A program made the position numbers and the translations under genes. Of a stretch of DNA of 47,665 nt, positions 1,529 to 45,695 are shown piece after piece (position 1 is the stretch's first letter; each line of letters begins with the position of its first letter). Source of the stretch: Deltaproteobacteria bacterium (lineage in GTDB: Bacteria; Myxococcota_A; SURF-8); contig JAKQSH010000367.1 of NCBI GenBank assembly GCA_029570245.1, positions 1 to 47,665 of the forward strand, read 5' to 3'. The notes below the pieces were generated by a model that was given only the letters and a program-made list of their open reading frames with translations, was not told the origin of the DNA and did not search any database.

Positions 1529-2029
1529 ATGTCGCTGCGTCACAGTCATTTAATTCTGGCCCTTCTGCTGGCTCTGCCTGTCGCCGTCGTAACCTTGTAT
1601 TTGTTCCGGCCCGATAAGGCTGTGCCGGACGATTGCCGCATGGTTCCCATTGAGCGCTGGCGTAACGGTGAGCCGAAAACGCTGACCTGCGACTGGGTGA
1701 AGAATAACATCGAATACGCCAGATACTGCGCCATCAAACCCGACGGCAAAGAGGCCGGTTGCTGGGTAACGCGCAACGGCGAACCCTATGAAGGCGACGT
1801 TGTCGAATGGTACGTTTACGGCAGAATGCCCGATCCGCAGGCGGCTTACGGAGTGGCGCGGGCCATAATGCGTTTTTCCCGTGGACAGCCGGACGGCGTC
1901 TGGCTGAATTATTATCCGAACGGAAAACTTATGAACGAAACCGTTTTCGAAAATGGTAGAAGCAAGGAAGTAAGACTTTACGACCAGTCCGGCAAGCTGG
2001 TGAGGAAAAACAGCTTTTCTTACCCTTAA
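1529..2029 (+). CDS. MORN-variant (YwqK-like) repeat protein with an N-terminal membrane anchor
   Basis: ORF 1508..2029. The N-terminus is hydrophobic (LILALLLALPVAVVTLYLF). It is followed by repeats of the type GVWLNYYPNGKLMNETVFENGRSKEVRLYDQSGKL. ATG 1529 is preferred over TTG 1508, but the start is uncertain and there is no clear SD. Confidence 0.5.
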   Translation: MSLRHSHLILALLLALPVAVVTLYLFRPDKAVPDDCRMVPIERWRNGEPKTLTCDWVKNNIEYARYCAIKPDGKEAGCWVTRNGEPYEGDVVEWYVYGRMPDPQAAYGVARAIMRFSRGQPDGVWLNYYPNGKLMNETVFENGRSKEVRLYDQSGKLVRKNSFSYP

Positions 2030-2038
2030 GGAAGCACA

Positions 2039-3883
2039 ATGAATCGAAAAATAAAAGCTTCGCTGATATCCATCTGTTCAGATGTTCTTATGATAAGCAT
2101 CAAGGCGGTGCTGGCGTCCCTCAGCGGCAGCGCGGCGCTTCTGGCCGACGCTTATCATTCGCTGTCCGATCTTTTCGTTTCCATATCGGTGCTGACAGGA
2201 GCCGCTTCCCGTTCGTATGTCGAAAAACGGGCGGAGGCCTGCGCTCAATCGCAGACTGAAACCGGCACGCAGACCGCGACAGAAGAAACCGGCAGCGAAC
2301 AGAGCGCCGCGACTGATGAGGCACAGAGCGAAAGCGCACGTAAAAACGCGCCGGGCTACTGGATAGAGGCCGGAATCGCCTACATAATTTCTCTGGTGAT
2401 ACTGTATCTGCCGGTCGAAATCATAAGCGGCCTGGCCGACAGCGGATCATACGAAATCAGAAATACGTGGATTGCAGTCATCGGAGTGGTTCTCTGCATA
2501 ATCATTGCATATTTTCTTTCACGATTCAAAATTCAGGTCGGAGCCGAAACGGATTCTCCGGCACTGGCGGCAGACGGTTACCATACCCGCATGGACATGT
2601 TCAGCTCAATCGCCGTCCTGTTTTCGCTCATGGGGCATCAGATCGGCATCAGGCTTGATCCGCTGGTGGCCATAATCATAGCCGTACTTATCGGAATAAC
2701 CGGACTGGAGCTTTTCATAACGTCCGTCATGGGGTTTGTACAGAAAACCAGCCTGCGCGATCTTTCGCTGTGGGGCAGGATAAACGCCGGAGCCGACCGT
2801 GCTTTTTCTTATACGGTCATGCGGTTTACCGGGCGCAGCGTTTCGTTGTCGGAATTCAATCTGGTCGGGCGTTTTTCGCCGCATAAATTCCTGACTCCGC
2901 GACGCCTGGCGCTCTGGCTGTTTCTGGCGTCGGCGCTGTGGTTTTCCAGTGGTCTGACCACCATCGCCCCTGATGAGATCGGCGTAAAATTCCGCTTCGG
3001 ACGCATTGTTGACGGCGAAATCAGGCCCGGCCTGGCCTATGGCTTGCCGTGGCCGCTCGAAAAAATAGAGCGTGTCAACATGACAAAGATTTACGGCGTC
3101 GAACTGGGTTTCCGCACCGATCAGAAGGCCGAAGGCAGTTTCACTTCCACACTGTGGGAAGCCACGCATACGGTTGACGGATACAGAAAAGAAAGGACGG
3201 AATCGGTCTCGCTGACCGGCGACGAAAACATCGTGGATTTCAGCCTGGTACTGCATTACCGCCCGCTGAATGCAGTGGTTCCGTTCTATAAGGTCAACAA
3301 CATCGACGAAGTTCTGCGCGGCCTTCTCGAATCCGGTATGCGCCGGGTTGTGGCAGTCAAAAACGCCGATCAGCTGCTGGTTGAAGACCGGCAGGCGATT
3401 CTTACGGAAATAAAGAATGAACTTTCGGAAGAAGTCAAACGCCTGGAACTGGGCGTCGAGATTATGGGAGTCTACTGCCATGACCTGCATCCGCCGCTTG
3501 AAGTGGTGGAGGCCTTCCGCAGCGTCTTTTCGGCGCGCGAAGAAAAAGCGCGTCTGCTGAACGAGGCCGAAAGCGCACGCAATGCATCCCTGCCGCAGGC
3601 TCGCGCCGACAGCAGACGCAAACTGCTTGAAGCCGAAGCCTTCGAGCATGAGCAGAAGGAACACTCCGGCGGCGACGCGGAAAATTTCAGGCTTAAGGCT
3701 GAAGCGTACCGAATCGCTCCGGGGGTCACATCTTACCGTTATTACATAGAAACAGCCGAAAAAGGCATGGCCGGAAAGAAAAAAATCATTGCCGACCCGG
3801 ACGCCAACCGGGGCGGGTACAATCTGTGGTTTTTCGCGCCTGAAAAACTGGGCGGAATCAGCGGCATAAAAGGAGAACGATAA
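2039..3883 (+). CDS. Fusion protein: a CDF-type (cation efflux) membrane domain, one extra TM helix, and an HflK-like SPFH/band-7 domain
   Basis: SD AAGGAAG lies upstream of the ATG. The N-terminal half carries the two CDF signature helices with H-x3-D sites (LLADAYHSLSDLF and LAADGYHTRMDMF). Then comes the TM helix LALWLFLASALWFSSGL, followed by GVKFRFGRIVDGEIRPGLAYGLPWPLEKIERV...LTGDENIVDFSLVLHY and a coiled-coil tail typical of HflK. Confidence 0.7.
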   Translation: MNRKIKASLISICSDVLMISIKAVLASLSGSAALLADAYHSLSDLFVSISVLTGAASRSYVEKRAEACAQSQTETGTQTATEETGSEQSAATDEAQSESARKNAPGYWIEAGIAYIISLVILYLPVEIISGLADSGSYEIRNTWIAVIGVVLCIIIAYFLSRFKIQVGAETDSPALAADGYHTRMDMFSSIAVLFSLMGHQIGIRLDPLVAIIIAVLIGITGLELFITSVMGFVQKTSLRDLSLWGRINAGADRAFSYTVMRFTGRSVSLSEFNLVGRFSPHKFLTPRRLALWLFLASALWFSSGLTTIAPDEIGVKFRFGRIVDGEIRPGLAYGLPWPLEKIERVNMTKIYGVELGFRTDQKAEGSFTSTLWEATHTVDGYRKERTESVSLTGDENIVDFSLVLHYRPLNAVVPFYKVNNIDEVLRGLLESGMRRVVAVKNADQLLVEDRQAILTEIKNELSEEVKRLELGVEIMGVYCHDLHPPLEVVEAFRSVFSAREEKARLLNEAESARNASLPQARADSRRKLLEAEAFEHEQKEHSGGDAENFRLKAEAYRIAPGVTSYRYYIETAEKGMAGKKKIIADPDANRGGYNLWFFAPEKLGGISGIKGER

Positions 3884-4767
3884 TGAAAAAGGCGCTGGCG
3901 GCAATCGGAGCACTCATAATTCTGATTTATATCATCGGCACTTCTTTTGTCACCGTTCACGAAAGCGAAGTGGTGATAATCACGCTTTTCAATCGTCCGA
4001 CACGCATAGTCGATCAGGCCGGTCTGACGCTGAAATGGCCCGACCCCATTCAGACGGCCATCCGCCTTGACCACCGGTTGCAATCGCTTGATTCCAATCT
4101 GGGAGAATATCTGACGCGTGACAAGAAAAACCTGGTGGCGAGCAGCTTCATCATATGGCGCATAGCCGACCCGGAGCGGTTCATTCAGAGCGTGCGCAAC
4201 AGCGCAGGCGCGCAGCGCAGGCTTTCCGACCTTGTAAGCTCGGAAATTGGCGTCGCCATCGGCGAATACCAGTTGAGCGATTTTCTCAATACCGGCAAGG
4301 AAGGCTCGAAGATCGGAGAAATATGCGATAATGTTCTGAAGAAAACCGCACCGCAGTCAATGAATGATTTCGGCGTCGAACTGGTGGATGTGCAGTTGCG
4401 CCGCCTGGGATTCCCCAGCCAGAACCTGCGCTCTGTATACGACCGCATGAGCGCCGAACGTGAGCGCATAGCCAAAAAGTACCGCGCCGAGGGCGAGGAG
4501 GAAGCCTCCAACATCCGTTCGCAGACTGACAAGGAAGTGCGTGAACTGCTGGCGCATGCCTATCGCGAATCACAGATAACGCGCGGGCGCGGGGAGGCCG
4601 AAGCCATCAAAATCTACGCCGAAGCATTCTCGAAGGACCCCGGCTTCTACAAAATGATGCGTACTCTCGAAGCCTACAACAAACTCATGGACGAGAAAAC
4701 CACTCTTATACTCTCGGCGGAGTCTCCGCTGTTCAAATATCTCGAAAATCCGCCGGAGGGAAACTGA
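3883..4767 (+). CDS. hflC: SPFH/band-7 protein, HflC-like
   Basis: The ATG overlaps the upstream stop (TAATGA at 3881-3886). One N-terminal TM helix, then TVHESEVVIITLFNRPTRIV...LKWPDPIQT, and the C-terminal ERERIAKKYRAEGEEEA / RGRGEAEAIKIYAEAF motif typical of HflC. Confidence 0.7.
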   Translation: MKKALAAIGALIILIYIIGTSFVTVHESEVVIITLFNRPTRIVDQAGLTLKWPDPIQTAIRLDHRLQSLDSNLGEYLTRDKKNLVASSFIIWRIADPERFIQSVRNSAGAQRRLSDLVSSEIGVAIGEYQLSDFLNTGKEGSKIGEICDNVLKKTAPQSMNDFGVELVDVQLRRLGFPSQNLRSVYDRMSAERERIAKKYRAEGEEEASNIRSQTDKEVRELLAHAYRESQITRGRGEAEAIKIYAEAFSKDPGFYKMMRTLEAYNKLMDEKTTLILSAESPLFKYLENPPEGN

Positions 4768-4768
4768 A

Positions 4769-5698
4769 ATGAGCGAGGAAAAGACGCTTAAGCACACCTT
4801 CCGCCATGCGCGGAAGATTCTGCTGGCTTCGCTGGCGCTGCTGTTTCTGCTTTATCTGGCCAGCGGCATCTACGCGCTCAAACCGGAACAGACCGGAGTT
4901 CTGATGCGTTTCGGAAAAATTGTGGCCGACGATATTCAGCCCGGCATACATTACCATCTGCCATGGCCTTTTGAATCAGTGTCGCGCCCCAACACCAGGG
5001 AAATCCGCTCACTGGAACTGACTTTCAGAAACGACGAAGCTGCGGAAGAAGACGATTACGAAGGCGGTCAGCTGCTGACCGGCGACGAGAATATTGTTCT
5101 GCTTACGCTGCTGGTTCAGTACACCATAAAATCTCCGGCCGATTACCTGACCGGCTCCGAATACCCTGAATACATCCTGTCCCGCCTGATTCAGGCCGAA
5201 AGCGTCAGATTGTTTGCCAGCATGTACATAGACGACATTCTGACAACCGGGCGCAACAGCATTCAGAGTGAACTGAAGCAGAAAGTGCAGAAATCCTCCG
5301 ATGGAATCGGTCTGGGAATACAGCTGGTCTCGGTGCAGATGCAGGCTGTGGAGCCTCCGCCGCGCGTGGCGCACTCATTCAAAGATGTAGCCTCGGCCCG
5401 CGAAGACATGCACAAAATGCTTCAAAAAGCCAACGGTGAACGCAACCGCCGCCTGCCGGAGGCCCGCGCCCAGGCTGAGCGCTCCATAAAAGAATCCGAA
5501 GCTCAGGCCAGCGAAATGATCGAAATGGCGCGCGGTGACGCCGAGAAGTTTCTGTCGGTATGGGACGAATACCGCAAGGCGCGCAGCGTTACGGCTCATC
5601 GCATATACATGGAAACCGTCGAAAACGTTCTGACGCGGGTAAAGAAGCATATCGTAAACCCCAACGCAGAGCGTAAGGCAGGAAACGGTATGCGCTGA
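4769..5698 (+). CDS. hflK: SPFH/band-7 protein, HflK-like (second HflK-type copy in the operon)
   Basis: SD GGAGGG. It starts 2 nt after the previous stop. TM helix, then YALKPEQTGVLMRFGKIVADDIQPGIHYHLPWPFESV...LTGDENIVLLTLLVQY...ARGDAEKF. Confidence 0.7.
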   Translation: MSEEKTLKHTFRHARKILLASLALLFLLYLASGIYALKPEQTGVLMRFGKIVADDIQPGIHYHLPWPFESVSRPNTREIRSLELTFRNDEAAEEDDYEGGQLLTGDENIVLLTLLVQYTIKSPADYLTGSEYPEYILSRLIQAESVRLFASMYIDDILTTGRNSIQSELKQKVQKSSDGIGLGIQLVSVQMQAVEPPPRVAHSFKDVASAREDMHKMLQKANGERNRRLPEARAQAERSIKESEAQASEMIEMARGDAEKFLSVWDEYRKARSVTAHRIYMETVENVLTRVKKHIVNPNAERKAGNGMR

Positions 5699-6331
5699 TA
5701 TTTCAGCTGCATTACTGCCTTAACGTTATTGAGCGCTAACCTTCGTCGCTTGCGCCATGCTGCCGGCAAGAATGAATATCCGTTAATTTTTTTGTGGTAT
5801 TTTTATTTTTTCTGCTGTATGGTACAGCCCCTTTGTCGGGTCGTTCTCCGACTGTCTGCGAAGACGGCGTCCGAGGATCGCGGTATGTCGCCGCTCGCAT
5901 ACAGTCAGTGGATTTTTTGTTGCCTGGCTTCCAGGAATATGTATTCTATAGACGTGGTGGTTTTCCGGTTTGGAGAACAGAAGAATCTCTGCCGGAAACG
6001 CATGGATTTTTTTCCGTCTTTTGTGGTTCCATTATCACTGCCGGCCTGCGGAGAAGAAGGCTGCAGCAAGGGCGCGTTCAATTTAATACTCAGGGGGATT
6101 TAATGCGACGACGCCCGTTCGATGAGTTTCCATATGGATGGAAGCGATAAAGTTCCCGGATATTTTTATATTATTTTTTACTGACCCGTTCCGACATCGA
6201 ATGTGTTTCCGTTCGTGAAACCCAATTTCGAGAAACCGATGTGATGGTTCTTTTTCTTTCAGTCGCTGATGCAGCGAAGTAAATACATCCGACGGGCTTT
6301 ACGGCCCACTGCTCTTTTAACAATGGGAACT

Positions 6332-14203: not shown

Positions 14204-14503
14204 TGATCCTTCTCCTTACTTCTCATTTCAGAAAGACAGAGATTCAGAAGTGCTGAAAAACAGCAGACATACAAACAAAGTGAAAAATACATTAGAATTG
14301 TATGAGGCGTTTGTCAAACGGATATTAACCCCGAAAGCTTTCAAACAGCTTGAATTAATGAAAATTAATGGTTGCAGGGAATTTTTCATTTGTTTCAGTG
14401 AACGTCCAGTGACCGGAATTTTCGGGCGGAGCTTGCAGACTGACTGCACTGGCAGTTAACATTTGATCAGCCTGTAAAAATCTGAAATCACATGGAGAAA
14501 AAA

Positions 14504-16270
14504 ATGTCTGCGGTAAAAGCGTTCAATTTTGCTGTTCTGTTTGTTTTTGCAGTGCTGTTTTTCGCCTGTGGAGAAAGCGGAGACGATAACGTCATCCAGG
14601 ATGACGGCGACACCGATTCTCTGGAAATGCCTGAGGAAGATGCGATTGAAGCAGAAGACGCGGAAAGCGCGGAAAGCGCGGAAACCCATGAAATTTCGGA
14701 CGAGGATGCGGAAAACAGCAATCCTTACGGAATAAGCTGGACGTCGTGTTCGCTGGAAGAGGGCGCAGATGACGGACTGGCGTTATGCGCATCGGCCATG
14801 CTGCCGCTTGTATACGAACCATTGGGCGAGAAGCGCATTGAGATTGGAGCCAAATGCTGGAAACCGGAAGGCGAGAGCAAGGCCCAGTTATGGCTTCTTC
14901 AGGGCGGTCCAGGCGGTTCCGGTATGATGACATTCGAGCCTTTCATGCGTGAGATACGCAAGCTGTATGCAGAACTCGAAATATGCACCATCGACCATCG
15001 CGGAGTCGGATATTCGAGCCTGTTGAAATGCCCGGAGCAGGAAGACCCCGACAGCGAAGGAGGCGCATACATATATGCAAGCGAGTGGGACGCCTGCATC
15101 GACTATCTGAACAAAACATATGGGGATGATCTTAAAGCCTATTCCACCAGCAATGCCGTGCGCGATCTGGCGACTTTCATAGACGCCACCCGCGAAAGCG
15201 GCAAAAAAGTGTTTGTCTGGGGCGGTTCGTATGGAACATATCTGGTGCAGCGTTATCTGAGTCATTTTCCGAATCAGGCTGATGGAGTCGTAATGGACGC
15301 CATTCACGCCTGCAGCCAGCCGGCCATCGCTTTCCCCAAATGGTATAACGGCGTCGGCAAACAGCTTTTCGAATATTGCGCCGAAGACGAGTTCTGCAGA
15401 TCAAAACTGGGCGACGATCCGTGGGCCCGCCTGGAAGCCGTGCACAAATCTCTCGATAACGGGCATTGCTCGCAGTTGCAGCTCGACCGTGCCGGGCTGG
15501 CTTATATTCTTGGCTGGCTGACATGGTACTATCCGATCAACAGCATTGTCCCCGCCATTGTTTATCGCCTCGAACGCTGCGAGTACAACGATATGCTGGC
15601 CATAGTGAACATGTACAACAATCTTTTCGGCGGCAACGGCGATCTGCTGGGGCTTGACGGCGCGTGGTGGTCGCAGGTGCTGAACGCCAACATTTCCATG
15701 TCTGACCAGTATTGGGGTGAGGAGTTCGAAGGTGTCGATCTTGACGCATATTTTGCAGCGATGAAAGATGAAGTTCTGGTGGGCAACTGGGGTACCAAAG
15801 AAGAATACGAAATGTACCAGAAGTGGCCCAAATATGAAGACCCGCTGGCAAACACGCTTCCCGACAGCGACATTCCTGTTCTGATGCTTCAGGGAGCAAT
15901 CGACGGCGCCACTCCGCACGAGCAGGCCGCAGTTCTGGGCGAACATCTGAAGGGCGAGCATCAGAACTACATTCTGTTCCCCTATTCCGCCCACGGCGTG
16001 ATGTCCGACTCATTCACTTCAGCCGACGAAGCGACATGCGGCATGAAAATTTTCATGGAATTTCTGAAAAATCCCGAAGTTGACCCCGACACATCCTGCA
16101 TTGCGGAAATTCCGCCGCCTTTCTTTGAAGGCAATCAGAATATTGCACAATATGCCATCGGCTACGACGATCTGTGGGAAAACGGAGAAACGACTCAGAA
16201 ACAGAGCGTAGAATCGCAGGATTTAACGCTCAGGCTGCCGCCGCCGGAATTGCGCAGAATGCCGTATTGA
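14504..16270 (+). CDS. Secreted lipoprotein, alpha/beta hydrolase of the S33 (prolyl/tripeptidyl aminopeptidase, TAP-like) type
   Basis: ATG 14504 has GGAG 7 nt upstream; the track ORF starts at ATG 14492. The FFAC lipobox is followed by an acidic linker. Motifs: LLQGGPGGSG, nucleophile WGGSYGTYLVQRYLSHFPNQADGVVMDAI, and a C-terminal ...YSAHGV His region. Confidence 0.7.
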   Translation: MSAVKAFNFAVLFVFAVLFFACGESGDDNVIQDDGDTDSLEMPEEDAIEAEDAESAESAETHEISDEDAENSNPYGISWTSCSLEEGADDGLALCASAMLPLVYEPLGEKRIEIGAKCWKPEGESKAQLWLLQGGPGGSGMMTFEPFMREIRKLYAELEICTIDHRGVGYSSLLKCPEQEDPDSEGGAYIYASEWDACIDYLNKTYGDDLKAYSTSNAVRDLATFIDATRESGKKVFVWGGSYGTYLVQRYLSHFPNQADGVVMDAIHACSQPAIAFPKWYNGVGKQLFEYCAEDEFCRSKLGDDPWARLEAVHKSLDNGHCSQLQLDRAGLAYILGWLTWYYPINSIVPAIVYRLERCEYNDMLAIVNMYNNLFGGNGDLLGLDGAWWSQVLNANISMSDQYWGEEFEGVDLDAYFAAMKDEVLVGNWGTKEEYEMYQKWPKYEDPLANTLPDSDIPVLMLQGAIDGATPHEQAAVLGEHLKGEHQNYILFPYSAHGVMSDSFTSADEATCGMKIFMEFLKNPEVDPDTSCIAEIPPPFFEGNQNIAQYAIGYDDLWENGETTQKQSVESQDLTLRLPPPELRRMPY

Positions 16271-16284
16271 CGAAAAGCTCAATC

Positions 16285-16301
16285 GGCGCGCGAAGCGCGC
16301 C
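16285..16301. repeat. GC-only hairpin GGCGCGC-GAA-GCGCGCC. The same core occurs at 22490..22514.
   Basis: The core GCGCGCGAAGCGCGC is present at both sites, each in an intergenic 3' region. Confidence 0.5.
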
Positions 16302-16394
16302 GCCAGCAAATGATGGCTGCGTCGGATTGAATAAAAACTAGAATGCGTCAGGCTATCTGGCTGTAAGAACATGTCAGATGCGGCGAGGCGAATT

Positions 16395-16949
16395 TCAGGG
16401 AGAGATACCGATTAGTTTGCGAATGCCGCTCAGGAATATATTGTAACTTTGGGATCGGTTCCCCTCTTCCCGCAATTCCGCGCCAATGGCACGAGCACCG
16501 CTTATTTTCTGATAAAGCGGGACCAGCTTTCTTAGTTCGTCTGACGGACTTGACAGTTTGTCAGGGTTACGGTACTTGCGGGAATTCTGTTGTTTCTTCA
16601 GATTTCTTACTCTCATAGCTGTTTCTACAGCCTGAAGGTCTCCAAGAAACCATGACTCCAGTTCCCTGCAAGAAATGCGAATCAGGCAATCTGATTTTCC
16701 GCTCTGATTGCATAATTCTCTAAGATGAGCTTTCACCACTTTGCAATCGGCTGAGTCCTGATCCCTTACAATAACGAATCTGGCTTGTGGGTCCTGCCAA
16801 GCCCGAAGTTTTCTCGGAATGGATTTTTCAAGGTCGGATTTGCCGCTGTGTGGAATCGCCATGTATTCCACTCCGGGGAACATACGAGGCATAAGACCGT
16901 CCAGCAGTTCCTTCATGGATTGTTCTTCGAGAAGAAACACCAGCTTCAT
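16395..16949 (-). CDS. DUF4276-like small Toprim-related protein (putative nuclease partner of the upstream ATPase)
   Basis: ATG 16949 lies 1 nt after the ATPase stop (TGA 16953-16951), so the genes are translationally coupled. The protein starts MKLVFLLEEQSMKELLDGL, then FVIVRDQDSAD and CRELESWFLGD. This acidic E / DxD / E pattern and the 184-aa size are typical of DUF4276. The 31-codon N-terminal extension in the track ORF (to 17042) overlaps the ATPase and was rejected. Confidence 0.65.
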   Translation of the reverse strand: MKLVFLLEEQSMKELLDGLMPRMFPGVEYMAIPHSGKSDLEKSIPRKLRAWQDPQARFVIVRDQDSADCKVVKAHLRELCNQSGKSDCLIRISCRELESWFLGDLQAVETAMRVRNLKKQQNSRKYRNPDKLSSPSDELRKLVPLYQKISGARAIGAELREEGNRSQSYNIFLSGIRKLIGISP

Positions 16950-16950
16950 A

Positions 16951-18123
16951 TCAAAGCCCCGTGTTCTCGAAGAAACCCTGTTTCCAAAGTTCCCCTGGAA
17001 AGTCGCCTTCCTCCACCAGAGCGCGTATTTGTTTGTTATCACACAAGCGTTTGATGCTCGTGTACCCGTTCTGTTTATTCAACCAGAAGATTTCCTCCAG
17101 TTTAACGCCATTGAGCAAGTCCGGTGAATGTGTGGACACGAACACCTGTCCACCACGCCTTGCGTAAAGTCTGAATTCCTCAGCCAGTTCCTGTAAAAGC
17201 TTTGGGTAAAGCTGATTTTCAGGTTCTTCGACACAAAGCAGTGGGTGGGGAGATGGGTCATATAACAGAACCAGATACGTAAACATTTTTATAGTACCGT
17301 CTGAAACGTATCGCGCCACGAAAGGGTCTTTGAATGCACCGTCCTGAAAGCGAAGAAGGATTTTTCCTTCTTCAGTGGTTGTTGCCTTGATTTCTTTTAC
17401 GCCCGGGACACGCTCAGACATTTTTTTCAGTATTTCATCAAAGATATCACGATGTCTTTCGTACAAAAATTGCGCGACAAGGGCCACGTTCTCGCCCTTT
17501 TCATTCAGATGTTCGGCGTAACCGGCGTCCTGACTTGAGCGGGCATATTCGATGTGAAAATTAGAGACATGCCAGTTTTCTATGAGTTTGCGGAAGGAGG
17601 AAACTACTTTGAATTTCTGAAACTGCCCCAATCCCTTTATCGCCAGAATATCTGGCGAATCAAGCTTCTGCTCGTCACGCTTTATCTCCGCGTCGGGTTT
17701 TCCGTAATCCTCCTCGTTTGTCACGGCCAGTCCCCTACCGTTCTGGAAATCCAGAAAATGCCAGGGCTTGCCTCGTTGTCCACGGCGATATTTCAACAAT
17801 TCCCGTTCAACTACAGGGCGGTTGTCCTTTAGTCCTATGCGGAGAGAATATGTTACAAGAGGCCCCGATTTATCACGGAACTTGATATCGAATCCAATTG
17901 GGCCTGTCGCTTCACGACTTCTCACCTCTTTGAAGCCTCCGCGCCGGGCAAGCGCCTTGTCAACATTGTTCTGAAGAGCATCCCGCAAAAAGCCGAACAC
18001 ATCAAACAGCGTCGATTTGCCGGAACCGTTTGCACCTACAAGCACCGACATCCCGGATAAATTACTCAATTCAGCGTCTTTGAATACCCTGTAATTTTTA
18101 ATGGCAATAGATTCTATCCGCAT
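16951..18123 (-). CDS. ABC/SMC-like ATPase of the AAA_15/AAA_21 type (OLD / AriA / GajA-like ATPase domain, no nuclease domain)
   Basis: SD GGAAGGA. MRIESIAIKNYRVFKD..., Walker A GANGSGKST, signature-like VSDGTIKMF, Walker B LLCVEEPENQLYP, and the VFVSTHSPDLLN H-loop region. Confidence 0.8.
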   Translation of the reverse strand: MRIESIAIKNYRVFKDAELSNLSGMSVLVGANGSGKSTLFDVFGFLRDALQNNVDKALARRGGFKEVRSREATGPIGFDIKFRDKSGPLVTYSLRIGLKDNRPVVERELLKYRRGQRGKPWHFLDFQNGRGLAVTNEEDYGKPDAEIKRDEQKLDSPDILAIKGLGQFQKFKVVSSFRKLIENWHVSNFHIEYARSSQDAGYAEHLNEKGENVALVAQFLYERHRDIFDEILKKMSERVPGVKEIKATTTEEGKILLRFQDGAFKDPFVARYVSDGTIKMFTYLVLLYDPSPHPLLCVEEPENQLYPKLLQELAEEFRLYARRGGQVFVSTHSPDLLNGVKLEEIFWLNKQNGYTSIKRLCDNKQIRALVEEGDFPGELWKQGFFENTGL

Positions 18124-18256
18124 TTATTTATCCTTCCGCCTGCATTTATATTTTAGTGCAGTGAAATCTGAATTGCAAATACCCATCTGAGTTTGCATTT
18201 TTGAGGACGTGTATTGACTTTTTCCAACAACAGAAAATATTCCTCGCCAGCGCCGG

Positions 18257-18285
18257 TTGACTGTATCTGAACTTTAATCTAATAT
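18257..18285 (+). promoter_or_regulatory. Sigma70-type promoter candidate for the FG-GAP lipoprotein gene
   Basis: TTGACT (18257-18262), 17-nt spacer, TAATAT (18280-18285). It lies about 40 nt upstream of ATG 18327, with a GGAG SD in between. Confidence 0.5.
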
Positions 18286-18326
18286 ATGCCCGTTCTGACA
18301 ACAATTCAGATGAACGGAGTTTTATA

Positions 18327-20417
18327 ATGCTGAAAAAAATGATTTTCGCTCTTCTGGCAATCTTCATACTGCTTTGCGCCAACGCCTGTGGCGGCTCGGA
18401 CGACGGCGGCGAGGGCGAGGGCGAAGGTGAAGGCGAGGGCGAAGGCGAAGGTGAGGGTGAAGGCGAAGGTGAAGGCGAAGGTGAAGGCGAGGGCGATTCC
18501 GAGGCCGAAAGCGACGGCGATTCGGATTCGGAATGGAACAGCGAATACCCGCAGCCGGTCTGCAAAAGTCCCGGAATACTCGGACCCATCCGTCCGTATT
18601 TCAAGGAAGTCAGTTCCGAATGGGCCATGGACGCCACTGGCCTTGACGTTCAGGGCAACCGCATAGCTTCGGTCGATATCGACAACGACGGCTGGCCCGA
18701 TCTGATCGTCCACAAGGTGTCTTCCAACGTCCGCGACGACTTCGAAGCAAACCCTCCGACTGTAAACAAGCACATCTACATGAACCGTCCCGACCCGGAT
18801 GACGCGACGAAGCGCGTATTTACAGATGTCACCCGCGAATCCGGTTTCACTGCCACGCGCGACGGCGGCGAAGGCCGTTCGGCGCAACTGGCGGTGTGGG
18901 GCGATGTCAACAACGACGGCAATCTTGACGCATTCAGCGGCAATTACTACGACGCAAACCACCCCGAAACCGACACCGGCGACCGCAACGAAATTCTGCT
19001 GGGCGACGGCAAGGGCGGCTTCACTCTGGCTCCGAAATCCGACATAACGGTTGAAGCCGGAGCATACAATTCCACCACCGGAGCATCCTTCCTGGACTAC
19101 AATCTCGACGGCAATCTGGATGTCTGGGTAACATATTTCTATCAGAAATACGGCTATCTGCTTGCCATGCAGAACAGACTTTTCAAGGGCAACGGCGACG
19201 GCACTTTCGAAGATGTCACCGATGAAATGGGACTTACCACCGACGACAACGGTTACGACGACGGCACCAACCACAAGCCGTCCTACGGCGCCAGTGTATG
19301 CGACGTGAACAACGACGGACTGCCCGATCTTATAGGCTCTACATATGGTCGTCAGTTCAACGAACTGTGGGTCAACAAGGGCGACAGCTTCGAGGATGTA
19401 AGCCAGTCTTCCGGCTTCGCCTCGGACGACAACATGGATTTCAGCGACAATCAGTTCTACAGGTGCTACTGCACAGTTCACGAATGCAACCCCGATCCAG
19501 GCAATCCAAGAGTACAGTGTCCCGATCCGGCGGATTCATACTGGTCAAGCGACGACGAAAAAGCCTGGCGCAACGGCGGCAATACCTTCTCGACTCTCTG
19601 CGGCGACTGGACCGGCGACGGTTTCCCCGATCTTTTCAACACCGAAATACAGCATTGGCACATCGGGCAGTCGTCCGACCCATCTCAGCTGCTGGTAAAC
19701 ACGACTTCCGTAATCGGCGTCAAATTCGACCGTCCCGGACGCGAAGCTACCGGCCTGACGCGCGCTCATGTAGGTTCGGACTGGAACGAAGGCGACATAA
19801 CCGCTGCGCGTTTCGATTTCGATCTTGACGGTTATCCCGATCTTTACCTGTGCAGTTCCGATTATCCCAATACCTGGGGTCGCCTCTATCATCAGGTCGA
19901 AGACGGCGTCTTTGAAGATGTCAACAAGGAAGCCGAAACCAAACACGAGCGGGCGCTGGGCATCACCACTTCCGACTTCGACCGCGACGGCGACCTGGAC
20001 ATGATAATAGGCTCCAGCACCATGCGCGAAAGCCCGTGGACAACGCCTCAGGTGTTCTTCTACAGAAACGAAATCGGGCAGTATTCCAACGCCGTCCGCC
20101 TGACGCTTAGAGGAAAAGGCGCCGGCTTTGCCAATGTCTCAGCCATCGGAGCCCGCGTGAAAATAAAAACCGGAGAACGCACACAGACGGAATGGGTTGA
20201 CGGCGGTTACGGACACTTCGGCAACCAGAACGATCTGACGCTGACCATCGGCCTTGGACAGAGCTGTGTCATCGACGAACTCGAAATCACCTGGCCGAAT
20301 TCCGAACTGAGCAAACAGGTCTTCCACGGAGTCCCGGCCAACTTCCACATCAGTCTTACAGAAGGCGGCGAGCTGGAATTTGTGGAAATGGTTCCCGGAT
20401 CGGCAGCAGCCGAATAA
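18327..20417 (+). CDS. Secreted lipoprotein with FG-GAP/VCBS repeats and a C-terminal ASPIC/UnbV domain (CRTAC1-family architecture)
   Basis: Lipobox CANAC, then a (GE)14 linker. There are seven Ca-binding-type repeats: DIDNDGWPDLIV, GDVNNDGNLDAF, LDYNLDGNLDVWV, CDVNNDGLPDLI, GDWTGDGFPDLF, FDFDLDGYPDLYL, SDFDRDGDLDMII. These are followed by AIGARVKIKTGERTQTEWVDGGYGHFGNQND (ASPIC/UnbV). Confidence 0.8.
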   Translation: MLKKMIFALLAIFILLCANACGGSDDGGEGEGEGEGEGEGEGEGEGEGEGEGEGEGDSEAESDGDSDSEWNSEYPQPVCKSPGILGPIRPYFKEVSSEWAMDATGLDVQGNRIASVDIDNDGWPDLIVHKVSSNVRDDFEANPPTVNKHIYMNRPDPDDATKRVFTDVTRESGFTATRDGGEGRSAQLAVWGDVNNDGNLDAFSGNYYDANHPETDTGDRNEILLGDGKGGFTLAPKSDITVEAGAYNSTTGASFLDYNLDGNLDVWVTYFYQKYGYLLAMQNRLFKGNGDGTFEDVTDEMGLTTDDNGYDDGTNHKPSYGASVCDVNNDGLPDLIGSTYGRQFNELWVNKGDSFEDVSQSSGFASDDNMDFSDNQFYRCYCTVHECNPDPGNPRVQCPDPADSYWSSDDEKAWRNGGNTFSTLCGDWTGDGFPDLFNTEIQHWHIGQSSDPSQLLVNTTSVIGVKFDRPGREATGLTRAHVGSDWNEGDITAARFDFDLDGYPDLYLCSSDYPNTWGRLYHQVEDGVFEDVNKEAETKHERALGITTSDFDRDGDLDMIIGSSTMRESPWTTPQVFFYRNEIGQYSNAVRLTLRGKGAGFANVSAIGARVKIKTGERTQTEWVDGGYGHFGNQNDLTLTIGLGQSCVIDELEITWPNSELSKQVFHGVPANFHISLTEGGELEFVEMVPGSAAAE
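18408..18491 (+). repeat. Coding hexanucleotide microsatellite (GGN-GAR)x14 that encodes 14 consecutive Gly-Glu dipeptides
   Basis: Counted codon by codon from G28 to E55 of the 18327 ORF. Only wobble positions vary. Confidence 0.95.
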
Positions 20418-27937: not shown

Positions 27938-29623
27938 ATGCCTACTATTGAACGTGAGGACCTGCGCAAAGAAGTACTGGCCGTGGCCAAAGAGCTGGGC
28001 TCGAACCGCTCAAGCCTCATCCCGCTGCTTCAGGCCGTTCAGGCCCGTTACGGTTACGTTTCCGAGCATGCCATGCAGGACATCGCCGACGCCATCGGCA
28101 TTTCACCGGTCGAAGTCCAGTCCGTGGCCACTTTCTATCACCTTATCAATACCGAGCCCACCGGCCGTTTCGTAATCCGTGTTTCGTCGTGCACACCCTG
28201 CATGATGGCCGGAGCCGAACGCATTATGCATCAGTTCGAGAACGAACTGGGCATCGAAGTCGGCGAAACCACCACGGACGGTGTTTTCACTGTCGAATGG
28301 ACCAGCTGCATCGGAATGTGCGATCAGGGTCCCGCCGTGCTGGTGAACGACAGCGTATACACTTTCGTAACACCTGAAAAGGTTTACGCAATCATCACCG
28401 AGTGCCGCAAGGCCTTCTCCGGCCTTGGAGCCAAAGCCAACGGCCTTATTCCCAACAAACGCAATTCCGGTCCCATCCTCGAAGGCGTCAGCGCTCCCAA
28501 CGCCGCGCTCAAAAAGGCTCTGGGAATGAAGCGCGTGGACGTTATCGCCGAACTGCGTGATTCCAACCTGCGCGGTCGCGGCGGAGCGGGCTTCCCGACT
28601 TCGCTCAAATGGCAGCTGGCCGCCGCCGCAAGCGATCCGGTCAAGTTCGTGGTCTGCAACGCCGACGAGGGCGAGCCGGGCACCTTTAAAGACCGTCTGC
28701 TGCTTACCGAATACATCGACACGCTGCTTGAAGGCATGACCATCGGCGGATACGCCATCGGTGCGAACACCGGCGTCATTTACCTGCGTGCAGAATACAC
28801 CTTTATGAAGGCCGCTATCGAAGCCGCCATCGAAAAGCGTCACACCGAAAAGCTGCTGGGCGAAAAAATTCTGGGCAAGGATTTCAACTTCGACATTCAT
28901 CTGCACATGGGCGCCGGCGCTTACGTGTGCGGCGAAGAAACCGCTCTCATCGAGTCCCTCGAAGGCAAACGCGGCGAACCGCGCAACCGTCCGCCTTTCC
29001 CGGTTGATACAGGTCTTAACGGACATCCGACCATCGTCAACAACGTCGAAACCTTCATCGACGCCGCCCTCATCGTCGATCGCGGCGCGGCCTGGTGGAA
29101 ACAGTACGGCACCGAAAAGTCCAGCGGAACCAAGCTCTTCAGCGTTTCCGGCGACTGCGACAAGCCCGGCATATACGAATTTGCCTGGGGCCTCACCGTA
29201 AACGATCTGCTCAAGCAGGTCGGCGGAGAAGGAGCCAAGGCGGTTCAGATCGGCGGCGCTTCCGGCACCTGCGTTCCCGCCAAGGACTTCGGTCGTAAAA
29301 TCTGTTTCGAAGACGTACCCACCGGCGGCTCCATCATGGTGTTCGACCATGATCGCGATATGCTGGAAATAGCTGAAAACTTCCTGGAGTTCTTCGTTGA
29401 AGAGTCCTGTGGAAAATGCGTACCCTGCCGCAAAGGCTGCCCGACTCTGCTGCGCGGAGTAGAAGAACTGCTGGACGGCAAGGGCTCGGTCGCTTATCTC
29501 AACAAGCTCAAGTCGCTGGCCGAAACCATGCAGTGCTCGTGCGTATGCGGTCTTGGACAGTCGGCGCCGAACGCATTCCTTTCAATTATAGCAAACTTCT
29601 CAGACGAAGTTCTGGGCCGTTAG
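27938..29623 (+). CDS. Fused NuoE-like [2Fe-2S] and NuoF-like (FMN/NADH, [4Fe-4S]) flavoprotein subunit of an NAD(P)-linked [FeFe]-hydrogenase (HydC-HydB fusion)
   Basis: NuoE part: LIPLLQAVQARYGYVS, RVSSCTPCMMAG, WTSCIGMCDQGPAVLVND. NuoF part: LRGRGGAGFPTSLKW, VVCNADEGEPGTFKDR, YVCGEETALIESLEG, ESCGKCVPCRKG. There is no C-terminal 2x[4Fe-4S] ferredoxin module. Confidence 0.85.
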   Translation: MPTIEREDLRKEVLAVAKELGSNRSSLIPLLQAVQARYGYVSEHAMQDIADAIGISPVEVQSVATFYHLINTEPTGRFVIRVSSCTPCMMAGAERIMHQFENELGIEVGETTTDGVFTVEWTSCIGMCDQGPAVLVNDSVYTFVTPEKVYAIITECRKAFSGLGAKANGLIPNKRNSGPILEGVSAPNAALKKALGMKRVDVIAELRDSNLRGRGGAGFPTSLKWQLAAAASDPVKFVVCNADEGEPGTFKDRLLLTEYIDTLLEGMTIGGYAIGANTGVIYLRAEYTFMKAAIEAAIEKRHTEKLLGEKILGKDFNFDIHLHMGAGAYVCGEETALIESLEGKRGEPRNRPPFPVDTGLNGHPTIVNNVETFIDAALIVDRGAAWWKQYGTEKSSGTKLFSVSGDCDKPGIYEFAWGLTVNDLLKQVGGEGAKAVQIGGASGTCVPAKDFGRKICFEDVPTGGSIMVFDHDRDMLEIAENFLEFFVEESCGKCVPCRKGCPTLLRGVEELLDGKGSVAYLNKLKSLAETMQCSCVCGLGQSAPNAFLSIIANFSDEVLGR

Positions 29624-29645
29624 ATGCCAATAAAGGAGAATAGCA

Positions 29646-31466
29646 ATGGCTGAAAACATCACCGCCGGCATCGGCGGACAGATCAGTATCAATATCGACG
29701 GCAGGGACCTTAAAGTTCCCTTCAACATGACCATTCTCGAAGCGGCCCGCGCCAACGGAATCCGCATTCCGACCTTGTGTTATCACGAAGACCTGTGCGT
29801 TTCCGGTTCCTGCCGCCTCTGTGTGGTCGAAATCGAAGGACAGCGCAATCTGCAGGCCTCCTGTGCTTATCCGATAACGCAGTCCATCAAGGTAAAAACC
29901 ACATCGCCGCGCGTGCGCCGCGCCAGAAAGAACATCATCGAGCTGCTTCTGGGCGAACACTTCGGTGACTGCTACACCTGCAAACGCAACAAGAATTGCG
30001 AATTGCAGTCTTTAGCCGCCGAATACGGCGTGACCGAGTATACCTTCGGAAAAGAAGAAGGACCCTTCTTCGAAATCCTGGGCGACGGTCCAGTGGTTCG
30101 CGACATGAACAAGTGCGTGCGCTGCTATCGTTGCGTTCGCACCTGTCAGACTTTGCAGGAAGTTTCAGCGCTGGGCAAAATCAATCGTGGCGACGAAACC
30201 TATATCGGCTCCTTCATGGACCTGCCGCTGCTTGAAGGTCTGTGCGTGGCCTGCGGTCAGTGCATCAACCGCTGTCCGACCGGCGCTTTAACCGAGCACG
30301 ATCAGACCGACGAAGTGTGGGCCGCCATCGACGATCCCACCAAGCACGTCGTCATTCAGACCGCCCCGGCTCCGCGCGCTGGCATCGCCGAAGCCTTCGG
30401 CATTCCCGCCGGAAGCGCCGTCACCAAAAAGATGAACAGCGCCATAAAGATGATGGGATTCGACAAGGTCTTCGACACCAACTTCACCGCCGACCTCACC
30501 ATCATGGAAGAAGGAACGGAACTGCTGCTCAGACTGAAAGCAGCTCTGGTTGACGGCAACAAGGATGTCAAGCTGCCGCAGATAACCTCCTGTTCGCCCG
30601 GCTGGGTCAAGTTCGCCGAGCAGGTTTCACCCAAGCTGCTGGATCATATTTCCAGTTGCAAGAGCCCGCAGCAGATGTTCGGCGCGGTCATCAAAACCTA
30701 TTACGCCGAACTGGCCGGAATCGACCCGAAAGACATCGTCAGCGTTTCTCTCATGCCCTGCACCGCCAAGAAGTTCGAGTGCGAGCGCCCCGAAATGTGC
30801 GACTCCGGTTATCAGGATGTCGATTACGCCCTGACCTCACGTGAGCTGGCCAAGATGATCAAGGAAGCCGGAATAGACCTTATGGCTTGCCCGGATTCGG
30901 AATTCGACGATCCGGTCGGTCTTGGTTCCGGCGCCGGCATCATTTTCGGAGCCACCGGCGGCGTTATGGAAGCGGCCATCCGCACCGCATACGAAATCGT
31001 CACCGGCAGAGAAATTCCTTTCGAGAATCTCGAAGTCAAACCGGTGCGCGGCATGGACGGCATCCGTTCCGCCGAGTTGCCTATAACCGGCGCTGTTGAA
31101 GCCTGGAAATTCCTCGAGGGCGCAACGCTGAAAGTCATGGTTGCGCATGGTCTGGCCAATGCCCGCAAAGTGCTCGAACAGCTCGCAGCCGGCGAACTGA
31201 GCGATTATCACTTCATCGAAATCATGTGCTGCCCCGGCGGTTGCCTGGGCGGCGGTGGACAGCCGATTCCGACCAACCCGGCCATCCGCAAGGCCCGCGC
31301 CGAAGCCATCTATCAGGAGGACCGCATCATGCCCATTCGCAAGTCGCACAAAAACCCGGTCATCGACAAAATTTACAAGGAATTCCTGACTGAAGGTCCC
31401 TGTGGACACAAGAGCCACAAGCTGCTGCATACGCATTACAAAAAACGCGGAACGCAGATCGTATAA
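29646..31466 (+). CDS. hydA: [FeFe]-hydrogenase catalytic subunit (M3-type: 2Fe-2S, His-ligated 4Fe-4S, 2x[4Fe-4S], H-domain, small-subunit-like tail)
   Basis: SD AAGGAG. N-terminal CYHEDLCVSGSCRLC, HFGDCYTCKRNKNCELQ, CVRCYRCVRTC and CVACGQCINRCP. H-cluster motifs are L1 TSCSPGW (variant of TSCCPxW), L2 MPCTAKKFE, and L3 EIMCCPGGCLGGGGQP. Confidence 0.9.
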   Translation: MAENITAGIGGQISINIDGRDLKVPFNMTILEAARANGIRIPTLCYHEDLCVSGSCRLCVVEIEGQRNLQASCAYPITQSIKVKTTSPRVRRARKNIIELLLGEHFGDCYTCKRNKNCELQSLAAEYGVTEYTFGKEEGPFFEILGDGPVVRDMNKCVRCYRCVRTCQTLQEVSALGKINRGDETYIGSFMDLPLLEGLCVACGQCINRCPTGALTEHDQTDEVWAAIDDPTKHVVIQTAPAPRAGIAEAFGIPAGSAVTKKMNSAIKMMGFDKVFDTNFTADLTIMEEGTELLLRLKAALVDGNKDVKLPQITSCSPGWVKFAEQVSPKLLDHISSCKSPQQMFGAVIKTYYAELAGIDPKDIVSVSLMPCTAKKFECERPEMCDSGYQDVDYALTSRELAKMIKEAGIDLMACPDSEFDDPVGLGSGAGIIFGATGGVMEAAIRTAYEIVTGREIPFENLEVKPVRGMDGIRSAELPITGAVEAWKFLEGATLKVMVAHGLANARKVLEQLAAGELSDYHFIEIMCCPGGCLGGGGQPIPTNPAIRKARAEAIYQEDRIMPIRKSHKNPVIDKIYKEFLTEGPCGHKSHKLLHTHYKKRGTQIV

Positions 31467-41746: not shown

Positions 41747-41808
41747 CAGCATAGTCGCCAAGCCTCTATTCCTTCGGGAACACGCTCAAATGTGGCGGCT
41801 TTTTTTTT
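41747..41808 (+). ncRNA. Candidate structured small RNA of about 60 nt ending in a U9 run, immediately 5' of the Abi_2/HEPN gene (putative type III antitoxin-like or attenuator RNA)
   Basis: The outer 8-bp stem pairs AGTCGCCA (41753-41760) with TGGCGGCT (41793-41800). It encloses a UUCC-UUCG-GGAA hairpin (cUUCGg tetraloop, about 41770-41781) and is followed by T9 (41800-41808). The TSS is inferred from P2 only. Confidence 0.45.
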
Positions 41809-41818
41809 GGGATTTGAC

Positions 41819-42733
41819 GTGAACGGCAGACTCGCTTATACAAAACCAGCTCTGACAACAGAGGCACAGGCCGAATTACTGCTGAGAAGAGGTCTGGTGG
41901 CAGACCGCAGCATTCTGATTGAACGTCTTTCACACGTCAACTATTACAGATTGAGCGCCTACTGGTATCCGTTCAAATTGCAGGATGACAATTTCAAGGA
42001 AGGCACATCCTTCGAACAGATATGGCGGCGTTACACTTTCGACAGACAGATACGTCTTCTTTTGATGGATGTGATTGAGAGAATTGAAGTTTCCGTAAGA
42101 ACCATCATGGTAAATGTGTTTGCACTGAAATTCGGGGCTTTCGGTCATCTGGAAGCCGCTAATTTTTCATCAGAACGAACTGGTGAAAATAATGACAGGC
42201 ATACCAAATTCCTGGAAAAACTCAGAGAAGAAGCAAAACGCAGTCAGGATGAATTCATAAGGCATTCCAGGATGACTTACTGCAAATGGCCCGATCTTCC
42301 TTTGTGGAAAGCCGCAGAAATAATGAGTTTTGGTAACATGTTCACCATGTTCAGAATGCTCGAACATAACCTGAAGAAAGAAATATCTTCAAGATATGAT
42401 CTTCCAGCTGTTGTTTTTGAAAGCTGGCTCGATTCTCTGAATTATATCCGCAATGTCTGTGCCCATCACGGCAGGCTCTGGAACAGAATTCTGGCTATAA
42501 AACCTAAAATACCTAACAGGAAGAATCGACCGGATTTTCATCATCCAATCAGTCTGGAAAATAACCGGATTTTCTCTCTGCTTACTGCATCAAAATACAT
42601 GCTTGATATCATAGCCCATCAAAGCAAATGGAAAAACAGGCTTATTTGCCTGCTGGAAGAGTATCCAGACATACCGATTAATGAAATGGGATTTCCTGAA
42701 AGATGGGAACAGATTCCGATCTGGATCGTATGA
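41819..42733 (+). CDS. Abi_2 family (AbiD/AbiF-like) abortive-infection protein with a HEPN R-x4-H motif
   Basis: YTKPALTTEAQAELLLRRGL...VNYYRLSAYWYPF... is the typical Abi_2 N-terminus. The HEPN motif is RNVCAH (R at 42449-42451, H at 42464-42466) in LNYIRNVCAHHGRLWNR. The track ORF starts at GTG 41792 inside the U-run, so GTG 41819 (or TTG 41807) is preferred. The start is uncertain. Confidence 0.8.
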   Translation: MNGRLAYTKPALTTEAQAELLLRRGLVADRSILIERLSHVNYYRLSAYWYPFKLQDDNFKEGTSFEQIWRRYTFDRQIRLLLMDVIERIEVSVRTIMVNVFALKFGAFGHLEAANFSSERTGENNDRHTKFLEKLREEAKRSQDEFIRHSRMTYCKWPDLPLWKAAEIMSFGNMFTMFRMLEHNLKKEISSRYDLPAVVFESWLDSLNYIRNVCAHHGRLWNRILAIKPKIPNRKNRPDFHHPISLENNRIFSLLTASKYMLDIIAHQSKWKNRLICLLEEYPDIPINEMGFPERWEQIPIWIV

Positions 42734-43538: not shown

Positions 43539-43584
43539 TTCAATTCCCTTTGAAGACGGTTGTTTATACGGAAAGTGTCCGGCG

Positions 43585-44403: not shown

Positions 44404-44464
44404 GATTTCATCTCCTTAATAAAGTATCCGAATGATTAATATCCTTCTTAATCATGCAATATTA

Positions 44465-45685: not shown

Positions 45686-45695
45686 GTTTTTCTCC

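Follow-up and report, generated by a model that had tools for sequence, protein, structure and literature searches.

We asked what role could be played by two minus-strand genes that lie by themselves between positions 16,395 and 18,123 of a 47,665-nucleotide contig from a Deltaproteobacteria bacterium (JAKQSH010000367.1, assembly GCA_029570245.1; this whole stretch is called the window below). The upstream gene (16951-18123) encodes an ABC-type ATPase of the AAA_21/AAA_15 kind, 390 amino acids (aa) long, and the downstream gene (16395-16949) a DUF4276 protein of 184 aa, predicted to be a nuclease made of a Toprim and a helical domain. An earlier interpretation of the same DNA, the sequence-only reading, had taken the two genes for a 'split OLD' module and a candidate anti-phage system. 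Judged by its sequence, the pair is a member of HEC-01, a candidate anti-phage system that has already been catalogued, and not a new system. We propose that it probably works as a self-contained, horizontally acquired and autonomous immune cassette, in which the ATPase would be the sensor or regulator and the DUF4276 protein an OLD-like, two-metal Toprim nuclease acting as the effector.

Assignment of the two proteins

HEC-01 (Hma-embedded candidate 01 of PADLOC-DB v2) was described as an ABC ATPase together with a TOPRIM protein found inside Hma, the helicase-methylase-ATPase system (Payne et al. 2024, bioRxiv 10.1101/2024.01.29.577857). The ATPase of the window matched the HEC-01 model PDLC04144 over residues 1-387 of 390 (637 bits, 2.9e-192) and a second HEC-01 ATPase model, PDLC04182, at 441 bits. 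The small protein matched PDLC04143 over residues 2-180 (247 bits, 1.8e-74) and a second HEC-01 model, PDLC04202, at 119 bits. Both proteins are therefore full-length HEC-01 matches, in agreement with the anti-phage candidacy proposed earlier. The ATPase and the TOPRIM/DUF4276 component are adjacent on one strand, separated by a 1-nucleotide (nt) gap, with the gene order of HEC-01. The Hma embedding was not seen at this locus, and this copy stands alone between housekeeping and secreted-protein genes; PADLOC scores HEC-01 regardless of the embedding. The PADLOC models for AriA, AbiLi, NsnB and mad3 scored far lower on the ATPase (84-123 bits). The Pfam searches pointed the same way as PADLOC, towards a two-gene ATPase and DUF4276 identity: the ATPase matched AAA_21 at 8e-38 and AAA_15 at 1.7e-22, and the small protein matched DUF4276 at 1.1e-13, its 52 bits exceeding the gathering score of 30.2, so that the family assignments made from the DNA alone held. 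PDLC04143 and PDLC04144 bear their labels the other way round from the remaining HEC-01 models: 'HEC-01A' matches the DUF4276 protein and 'HEC-01B' the ATPase.

The gene structure was also as the sequence-only reading had described it. On the minus strand, the junction (16947-16953) reads GGGCTT TGA T ATG AAG, with the stop codon of the ATPase gene at 16953-16951, a single T and the ATG of the DUF4276 gene at 16949-16947. This arrangement strongly supports translational coupling of the two genes. The longest mechanical open reading frame (ORF) for the DUF4276 gene begins upstream, at GTG 17042. We nevertheless place the start at ATG 16949, because all 55 of the 55 homologues begin at M-x-LVFLLEE and because the PADLOC model aligned from residue 2. 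Every motif that had been claimed was found, namely GANGSGKST, VSDGT, LLCVEEPE and STHSPDLL in the ATPase, and MKLVFLLEEQ, RDQDSAD and ELESWFLGD in its partner.

The structural model of the small protein carries most of the argument for a nuclease. The AlphaFold2 model, built from a 55-sequence alignment, reached a mean pLDDT score of 96.3 and has an alpha/beta core of four strands, behind which the C-terminal half is helical. In a Foldseek search against the PDB, the top three matches were C-terminal catalytic regions of class 2 OLD proteins (6nk8 and 6njv), two of them Burkholderia pseudomallei (Bp) OLD chains and the third the Xanthomonas campestris (Xcc) enzyme. These matches, with E-values of 8e-4 to 1.6e-3, a probability of 1.00 and template modelling (TM) scores of 0.50-0.54, aligned essentially the whole small protein, and 6nk8 and 6njv were its only significant PDB structure matches. 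The Toprim-like fold proposed earlier was thus recovered, and the model supports the view that the small protein has, over its whole length, the Toprim and helical architecture of the OLD catalytic C-terminal region. The OLD relationship is drawn from fold comparison only, since PDB sequence searches with the DUF4276 protein, whether with the single sequence or with the 55-sequence profile, returned nothing meaningful. The best match in a viral structure library was an RloB-like protein; against the Pfam RloB model itself, the small protein scored 15.1 bits, under the cut-off of 31.5.

The conserved residues fit such a fold. Across 81 DUF4276 sequences, E8, D63 and E98 are 100% conserved, D65 99%, E9 98% and E96 93%, and K37, K73, R91 and D130 are 99-100% conserved. 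In the model, the acidic residues sit directly after beta1, beta3 and beta4, as those of a Toprim site would. In Bp OLD, metal A is bound by E400, D455 and D457 and metal B by E404, T506 and E508, with K562 in addition (PMC6755086). We infer that E8/E9 would correspond to the Toprim glutamate, D63/D65 to the DxD motif and E96/E98 to the acidic pair that opens the helical part; no clear counterpart of K562 was identified in the small protein.

The ATPase half tells a less specific story. Its AlphaFold2 model (pLDDT 82.7) has as nearest PDB folds PtuA (of Septu and of the retron Ec78/Eco7 effectors), Rad50 and SMC heads, and PtuA is also its best PDB sequence match. The Thermus OLD protein came 38th among the structure matches, at a similar E-value, and AriA was not within the top 50. 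The description 'split OLD' therefore stands for the nuclease half, which has the OLD catalytic fold, and is only generic for the ATPase half, because the nearest folds of the latter are PtuA, Rad50 and SMC and the Thermus OLD comes only 38th. The catalytic elements of an ABC ATPase are all in place: the Walker A K36, the Q-loop Q167, the signature S274-D-G-T277, the Walker B E299/E300 and the H-loop H332 are invariant in 74 sequences. The ATPase is also the better conserved of the two proteins, with a mean identity to the window protein of 63%, versus 53% for the DUF4276 partner, a mean column identity of 76% versus 52%, and 96 of its 390 positions conserved at 97% or more across phyla. Across distant phyla, the ATPase is 65-78% identical and mostly 389-393 aa long, which is striking for a putative immune protein.

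Distribution and accessory nature of the pair

We then considered how widely the pair occurs and whether its two genes stay together. Relatives of the DUF4276 protein numbered 1611 in a collection clustered at 90%, the nearest being 70% identical, and 1314 among 50%-identity representatives, 166 of them at E <= 1e-30. Among the genome matches listed, holders at 47-59% identity came from Thermodesulfobacteriota, Methylococcales, Firmicutes, Cyanobacteria, Planctomycetota, Myxococcales, Spirochaetes, Chloroflexi, Acidobacteriota and Burkholderia. The linkage was counted over 80 related loci among these matches. In 77 of them, spread over many phyla, the gene immediately upstream of the DUF4276 gene codes for an ATPase homologue (52-72% identical), and in the same 77 the ATPase and the Toprim protein are kept as separate ORFs, as they are here, where a stop codon divides them. 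In these loci the ATPase ORF stops at the DUF4276 gene or runs into it, the most common overlaps being 4 nt or 1 nt, under longest-ORF calling. Of the three exceptions, two lie where a contig ends. The other one, in Chloroflexus islandicus isl-2 (L074, 5945-7658), is the only complete locus listed that lacks the ATPase; upstream of the DUF4276 gene, and overlapping it, is an unrelated ORF of 390 aa, and the DUF4276 gene may be an orphan or the result of a partner swap. No third conserved gene was found among the immediate neighbours of the pair in 63-65 de-replicated loci.

The base composition sets the pair apart from its surroundings. At 47.3% GC, it lies about 6 points below the window (53.2%), in the 3rd percentile of windows of the same length; at third codon positions, its GC content is 0.48-0.50 and that of the neighbouring genes 0.60-0.67. 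The AT-richer stretch noted earlier is thus real. The dip is not unique: around 41.5-43 kb, 5.5-7 kb and 26.5-27.5 kb, the GC content of the window falls as well. Elsewhere the same trend holds: at 70 of the 71 loci compared, the pair has less GC than the DNA that flanks it, the mean difference being 6.6 points, and the GC content of the pair follows that of the host (r = 0.9).

A direct view of the site came from a relative, L090, that carries the same hydrolase (78% aa identity) and the same FG-GAP protein (86% aa identity) as the genes that border the pair in the window, with DNA flanks that are 81% identical. By blastn, positions 360-1831 of L090 correspond to 14716-16181 of the window (81.1%) and positions 3667-5864 to 18254-20417 (80.7%). 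Between these flanks there is no similarity, and the segment of the window that varies (16182-18253) contains the whole pair. In its place, at 1832-3666, L090 carries an unrelated, Cys-rich ORF of 483 aa without a Pfam or PADLOC match. Because an unrelated gene occupies the site between 81%-identical flanks, we regard the pair as accessory cargo. Compared in this way, the sequences indicate that the pair is an accessory, horizontally acquired or moving unit, and the housekeeping operon conserved syntenically in relatives, which the sequence-only reading had named as the outcome that would speak against it, was not what we found. Near-identical contigs of the same species, from several metagenomes, hold the pair at the same place; some of them are broken at a point some 315 nt upstream of the ATPase gene, within a tandem repeat of the FG-GAP gene that codes for (GE)n. 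A further locus, L008, whose pair is 70% identical, was considered as a case of conserved synteny and dropped, as only a distant AhpC gene is common to both and the immediate neighbours differ.

The cargo of L090 has a feature of its own. Direct repeats of about 85 nt, at 1966-2052 and 3557-3643 of L090, bracket the 483-aa ORF, and each holds two perfect palindromes, CCGACAATTAATTGAATTGTCGG and GGGGCGCAATTAATTGCGCCCC. They may be elements resembling repetitive extragenic palindromes (REP) or miniature inverted-repeat transposable elements (MITE) that mark a site of cargo exchange. The window does not contain these 85-nt palindromic repeats. The absence of an integrase, a transposase or flanking repeats, as noted earlier, agrees with our own searches: no integrase or transposase domain was present among the window genes scanned, and no credible direct or inverted repeats were found to flank the pair.

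These data bear on one possible interpretation of the pair, that of a housekeeping or stress-related module of DNA repair and recombination following the logic of RecF-RecR or Rad50-Mre11. Such a function would suit an ATPase that is highly conserved and whose fold is as good a match to Rad50 and SMC heads as to PtuA, and it would be in keeping with the housekeeping neighbours found at many loci, this one included. NCBIfam models for Rad50 and RecF did match the N-terminal part of the ATPase, but weakly, and all of them far under their cut-offs. Moreover, the pair is patchy across many phyla at similar levels of identity, its GC content is below that of the flanks nearly everywhere, L090 has different cargo at the same site, and there is no conserved synteny with repair genes. 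We consider a repair role very unlikely.

Defence neighbourhoods, proposed mode of action and known relatives

If the pair is an immune cassette, some of its copies might be expected near other defence genes, a check that the sequence-only reading had proposed. We counted the immediate neighbours in the 63-65 de-replicated loci, with genes called as longest ORFs and as raw counts without a background control. With PADLOC, the upstream neighbour was HmaB at 10 of 63 loci and the downstream one HmaC at 6 of 65; other neighbours matched PglZ, subunits of Type I restriction-modification (RM) systems, AriA-like proteins, GajB/Gabija, Old, DRT and HEC-02. With Pfam, DUF1156 was found upstream in 7 loci and DUF499 and HEPN_Swt1 downstream in 5 each, together with the rarer PglZ, ResIII, N6_Mtase and UvrD. 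By these counts, about 10-16% of the loci lie within Hma, roughly one in four has a known defence gene next to it, and the others have none. The locus studied here is among the others: the five scanned genes that flank the pair gave no PADLOC match, and its neighbours are housekeeping or secreted-protein genes.

The pairing of an ATPase with a DUF4276 protein is already named, as HEC-01, and has been tested twice with conflicting results. Payne et al. reported a conserved OLD-like metal site in HEC-01B, and one HEC-01 representative expressed in E. coli protected against none of the phages tried (bioRxiv 10.1101/2024.01.29.577857). Another HEC-01 cassette, cloned by itself, is reported to have given E. 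coli B protection from one or more of the phages T4, T5 and T7 (Han et al. 2026, PMC12881386). Another study keeps HEC-01 as an unvalidated candidate.

One could imagine from these data that the pair is a non-autonomous accessory effector, which needs a partner such as Hma, BREX, RM or a MADS-like system, and that the stand-alone copy studied here is inert or orphaned. HEC-01 was discovered embedded in Hma, HmaB or HmaC flanks about 10-16% of the loci, the related Mad3 and Mad4 proteins belong to a multi-gene system, and it was a stand-alone representative that gave no defence in the hands of Payne et al. However, about 84-90% of the loci have no Hma neighbours and yet keep all the catalytic residues, which argues for selection on an autonomous function, and the cassette described by Han et al. 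is reported to be protective by itself. For these reasons, we hold a dependence on partners to be quite unlikely at this locus.

A different light is thrown by the copy carried on plasmid pSYSM of Synechocystis sp. PCC 6803 (SGL_RS00110/00115; L093, 6001-7742), the ATPase of which is 58.5% identical to that of the window. Its neighbours are toxin-antitoxin modules (RelE/HigA and pairs of a nucleotidyltransferase-domain and a DUF86 protein), HNH endonucleases, a cysteine desulfurase and a Dnd-associated methyltransferase. The pair might be a selfish addiction module of the toxin-antitoxin type, in which the ATPase restrains a toxic nuclease, loss of the module is harmful and any anti-phage effect is incidental. 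This would be compatible with the tight coupling of the genes, with their horizontal spread and low GC content, with the Pfam annotation of AAA_21 as 'putative AbiEii toxin, Type IV TA system' and with the HEC-01 test in which no defence was seen. The architecture is nevertheless the same as that of the proven ATPase-nuclease immune systems PARIS, Septu and OLD, and an immune role is suggested by the copies that are found time and again inside Hma, BREX and RM operons. We judge an addiction function improbable. Addiction, repair and dependence on partners are all possible, and all are less supported than an autonomous immune cassette.

For the autonomous immune cassette, we propose the following scenario, by analogy with OLD, PARIS and Septu. 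The ATPase and the DUF4276 protein would form a complex, in which an oligomer of the ATPase would sense an infection cue and keep the nuclease silent. Upon the trigger, binding or hydrolysis of ATP would license or release the nuclease, which would then cut nucleic acid by metal-dependent catalysis, and this cleavage would block phage replication or abort the infected cell. The target would most likely be DNA, nicked or degraded as by class 1 and class 2 OLD proteins, because the small protein specifically resembles the OLD catalytic region; cleavage of tRNA, as by AriB, is possible. To our knowledge, tRNA targeting has been shown only for AriB, and we know of no DUF4276 protein with a solved structure or with a biochemically defined substrate.

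Several observations weigh against such an immune role. The pair stands outside any defence island here and at most related loci. Phages and viral contigs hardly ever carry the family: we found it in 0 of 50,697 phage records and in only 2 IMG/VR contigs, and 10 of 72,556 plasmid records carry it. The conservation of the ATPase across phyla (63% mean identity) is unusual for an immune sensor. The TM score to OLD is only about 0.5. Finally, the first of the two published trials saw no protection (bioRxiv 10.1101/2024.01.29.577857), and the second concerned a different representative, its text giving neither a fold-protection value nor mutants (PMC12881386). Since the ATPase is far more conserved than the nuclease and most copies lie outside defence islands, one may speculate that what the ATPase monitors is not a fast-evolving phage protein but something invariant, for instance a DNA structure, free DNA ends or a host process that infection disturbs, and that the OLD-like nuclease could have a substrate new to the superfamily. 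We put this forward as a tentative idea, with the chances on the low side.

The comparison with other ATPase-nuclease systems places HEC-01 more precisely. The OLD proteins of classes 1 and 2 (P2 Old, Ts OLD, Bp and Xcc OLD, and GajA) likewise join an ABC ATPase to a Toprim nuclease, and the Toprim-plus-helical region of Bp and Xcc OLD aligns with the whole small protein, in which the Toprim glutamate, the DxD motif and the acidic pair after beta4 appear to be conserved. OLD is, however, one polypeptide, whereas here there are two ORFs with a stop codon between them, so that membership among the single-polypeptide OLD proteins (classes 1-4) was rejected; the Pfam model of the OLD-type Toprim gave no match, DUF4276 being the only one, and the 390-aa ATPase resembles PtuA or Rad50 at least as closely as it does the OLD ATPase. 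Gabija was rejected as well: GajA is a fused ATPase-Toprim protein next to the UvrD-like helicase GajB, whereas the two parts are unfused here and no helicase gene adjoins them.

PARIS, in which the AriA ATPase and the AriB Toprim protein are encoded by separate adjacent genes, follows the same split logic. As the sequence-only reading had pointed out, the nuclease family differs, AriB being a DUF4435 protein and the effector here a DUF4276 protein. Membership in PARIS was discarded on this ground and for want of a PADLOC match to AriB, and the AriA models gave secondary matches of 122 and 85 bits, versus 637 for HEC-01. PARIS is also often borne by phages or satellites, in contrast to the HEC-01 family. 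MADS combines Mad3, an AAA_21-type ATPase, with Mad4, a DUF4276 protein (PMC12065111). The corresponding NCBIfam equivalogs matched far below their cut-offs (MAD3, 124 bits vs 420; MAD4, 14 bits vs 160) and none of the other mad genes, including the methyltransferase, was found among the window neighbours, so we did not retain MADS either.

The combination of an ABC ATPase with a small protein of the Toprim superfamily also occurs in AbiL (AbiLi with the RloB-like AbiLii), in RloA/RloB of Type I RM loci and in Menshen variants made of NsnB and a DUF4276 version of NsnC. The AbiLi match was partial (94 bits) and, given the RloB score below the cut-off, AbiL was set aside; AbiLi and NsnB scored about 92-94 bits versus 637 for HEC-01, and there is no NsnA/ParB-like partner here. 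PtuA, from Septu and from the PtuAB effector of the retron Ec78/Eco7, is the closest solved fold of the ATPase. Its partner PtuB is an HNH nuclease, though, whereas the partner here is a Toprim protein, which excluded Septu; neither a reverse transcriptase nor a non-coding RNA accompanies the pair. Indeed, an Rfam search over 15500-19000 gave no match, and on this basis a retron-like or other known non-coding RNA partner was ruled out. In the literature, DUF4276 and RloB have both been placed in the Toprim superfamily by the Menshen analysis, Mad4 is described as a DUF4276 protein (PMC12065111), and the AAA_15/21 tree of the PARIS paper takes in DUF4276-linked ATPases.

The locus opens no new category, as HEC-01 is already in PADLOC. 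It is a clean example of HEC-01 as stand-alone cargo at a variable chromosomal site. If HEC-01 were confirmed as a defence system, it would add one more branch to the ABC ATPase-nuclease immune family, and it would represent a minimal OLD-like enzyme split into two small, biochemically easy proteins. The pSYSM copy, for its part, places a native HEC-01 pair in Synechocystis PCC 6803, an organism that is amenable to genetics.

Expression signals and other features of the window

The pair appears to have its own transcription signals. The spacer that separates the ATPase gene from the divergent gene on its right (18124-18326) has a GC content of 36.9%. A consensus scan found promoter-like −35 and −10 sequences inside it, at 18179-18150 on the minus strand, and a Shine-Dalgarno sequence, GGAAGGA, precedes the ATG of the ATPase gene at 18123. 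The operon is probably driven by a promoter of its own in this spacer. At the other end, between the convergent hydrolase and DUF4276 genes, a GC-rich hairpin (GGCGCGC-TTC-GCGCGCC) lies at 16285-16301 and is possibly a terminator shared by both genes; a terminator scan did not call it, because its T-run is displaced. Of the two spacers that had been described as AT-rich, only the right one is so, the left one (16271-16394) having a GC content of 53.2%. The description of both flanking genes as secreted hydrolases was likewise half right. The left gene (14492-16270) encodes an alpha/beta hydrolase, and the right gene (18327-20417) a protein with FG-GAP/ASPIC-UnbV repeats according to Pfam. In the latter, a tandem repeat of 12/18 nt (18378-18539, plus strand) codes for a (Gly-Glu)n tract behind a lipoprotein-like signal, and similar acidic low-complexity linkers are found behind the signal peptides of neighbouring proteins of 592 and 903 aa. 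The window contains no tRNA gene.

About 24 kb from the pair, a plus-strand gene (41792-42733) encodes a 313-aa Abi_2 protein (AbiD/AbiF-like abortive infection; Pfam, 3.8e-59). It lies in the stretch of lowest GC content of the window (0.427), between the genes for a HAD hydrolase and for a FliA-like factor of the sigma-70 family, and it has the look of another defence-like gene that stands alone and was apparently acquired. The window also contains, at 27938-31466 and 42756-47654, paired genes for NuoF-like/[FeFe]-hydrogenase proteins, and genes of the flagellum for FlhA, FlhF and a FliA-like factor of the sigma-70 family, a gene content which suggests that the host is a motile anaerobe.

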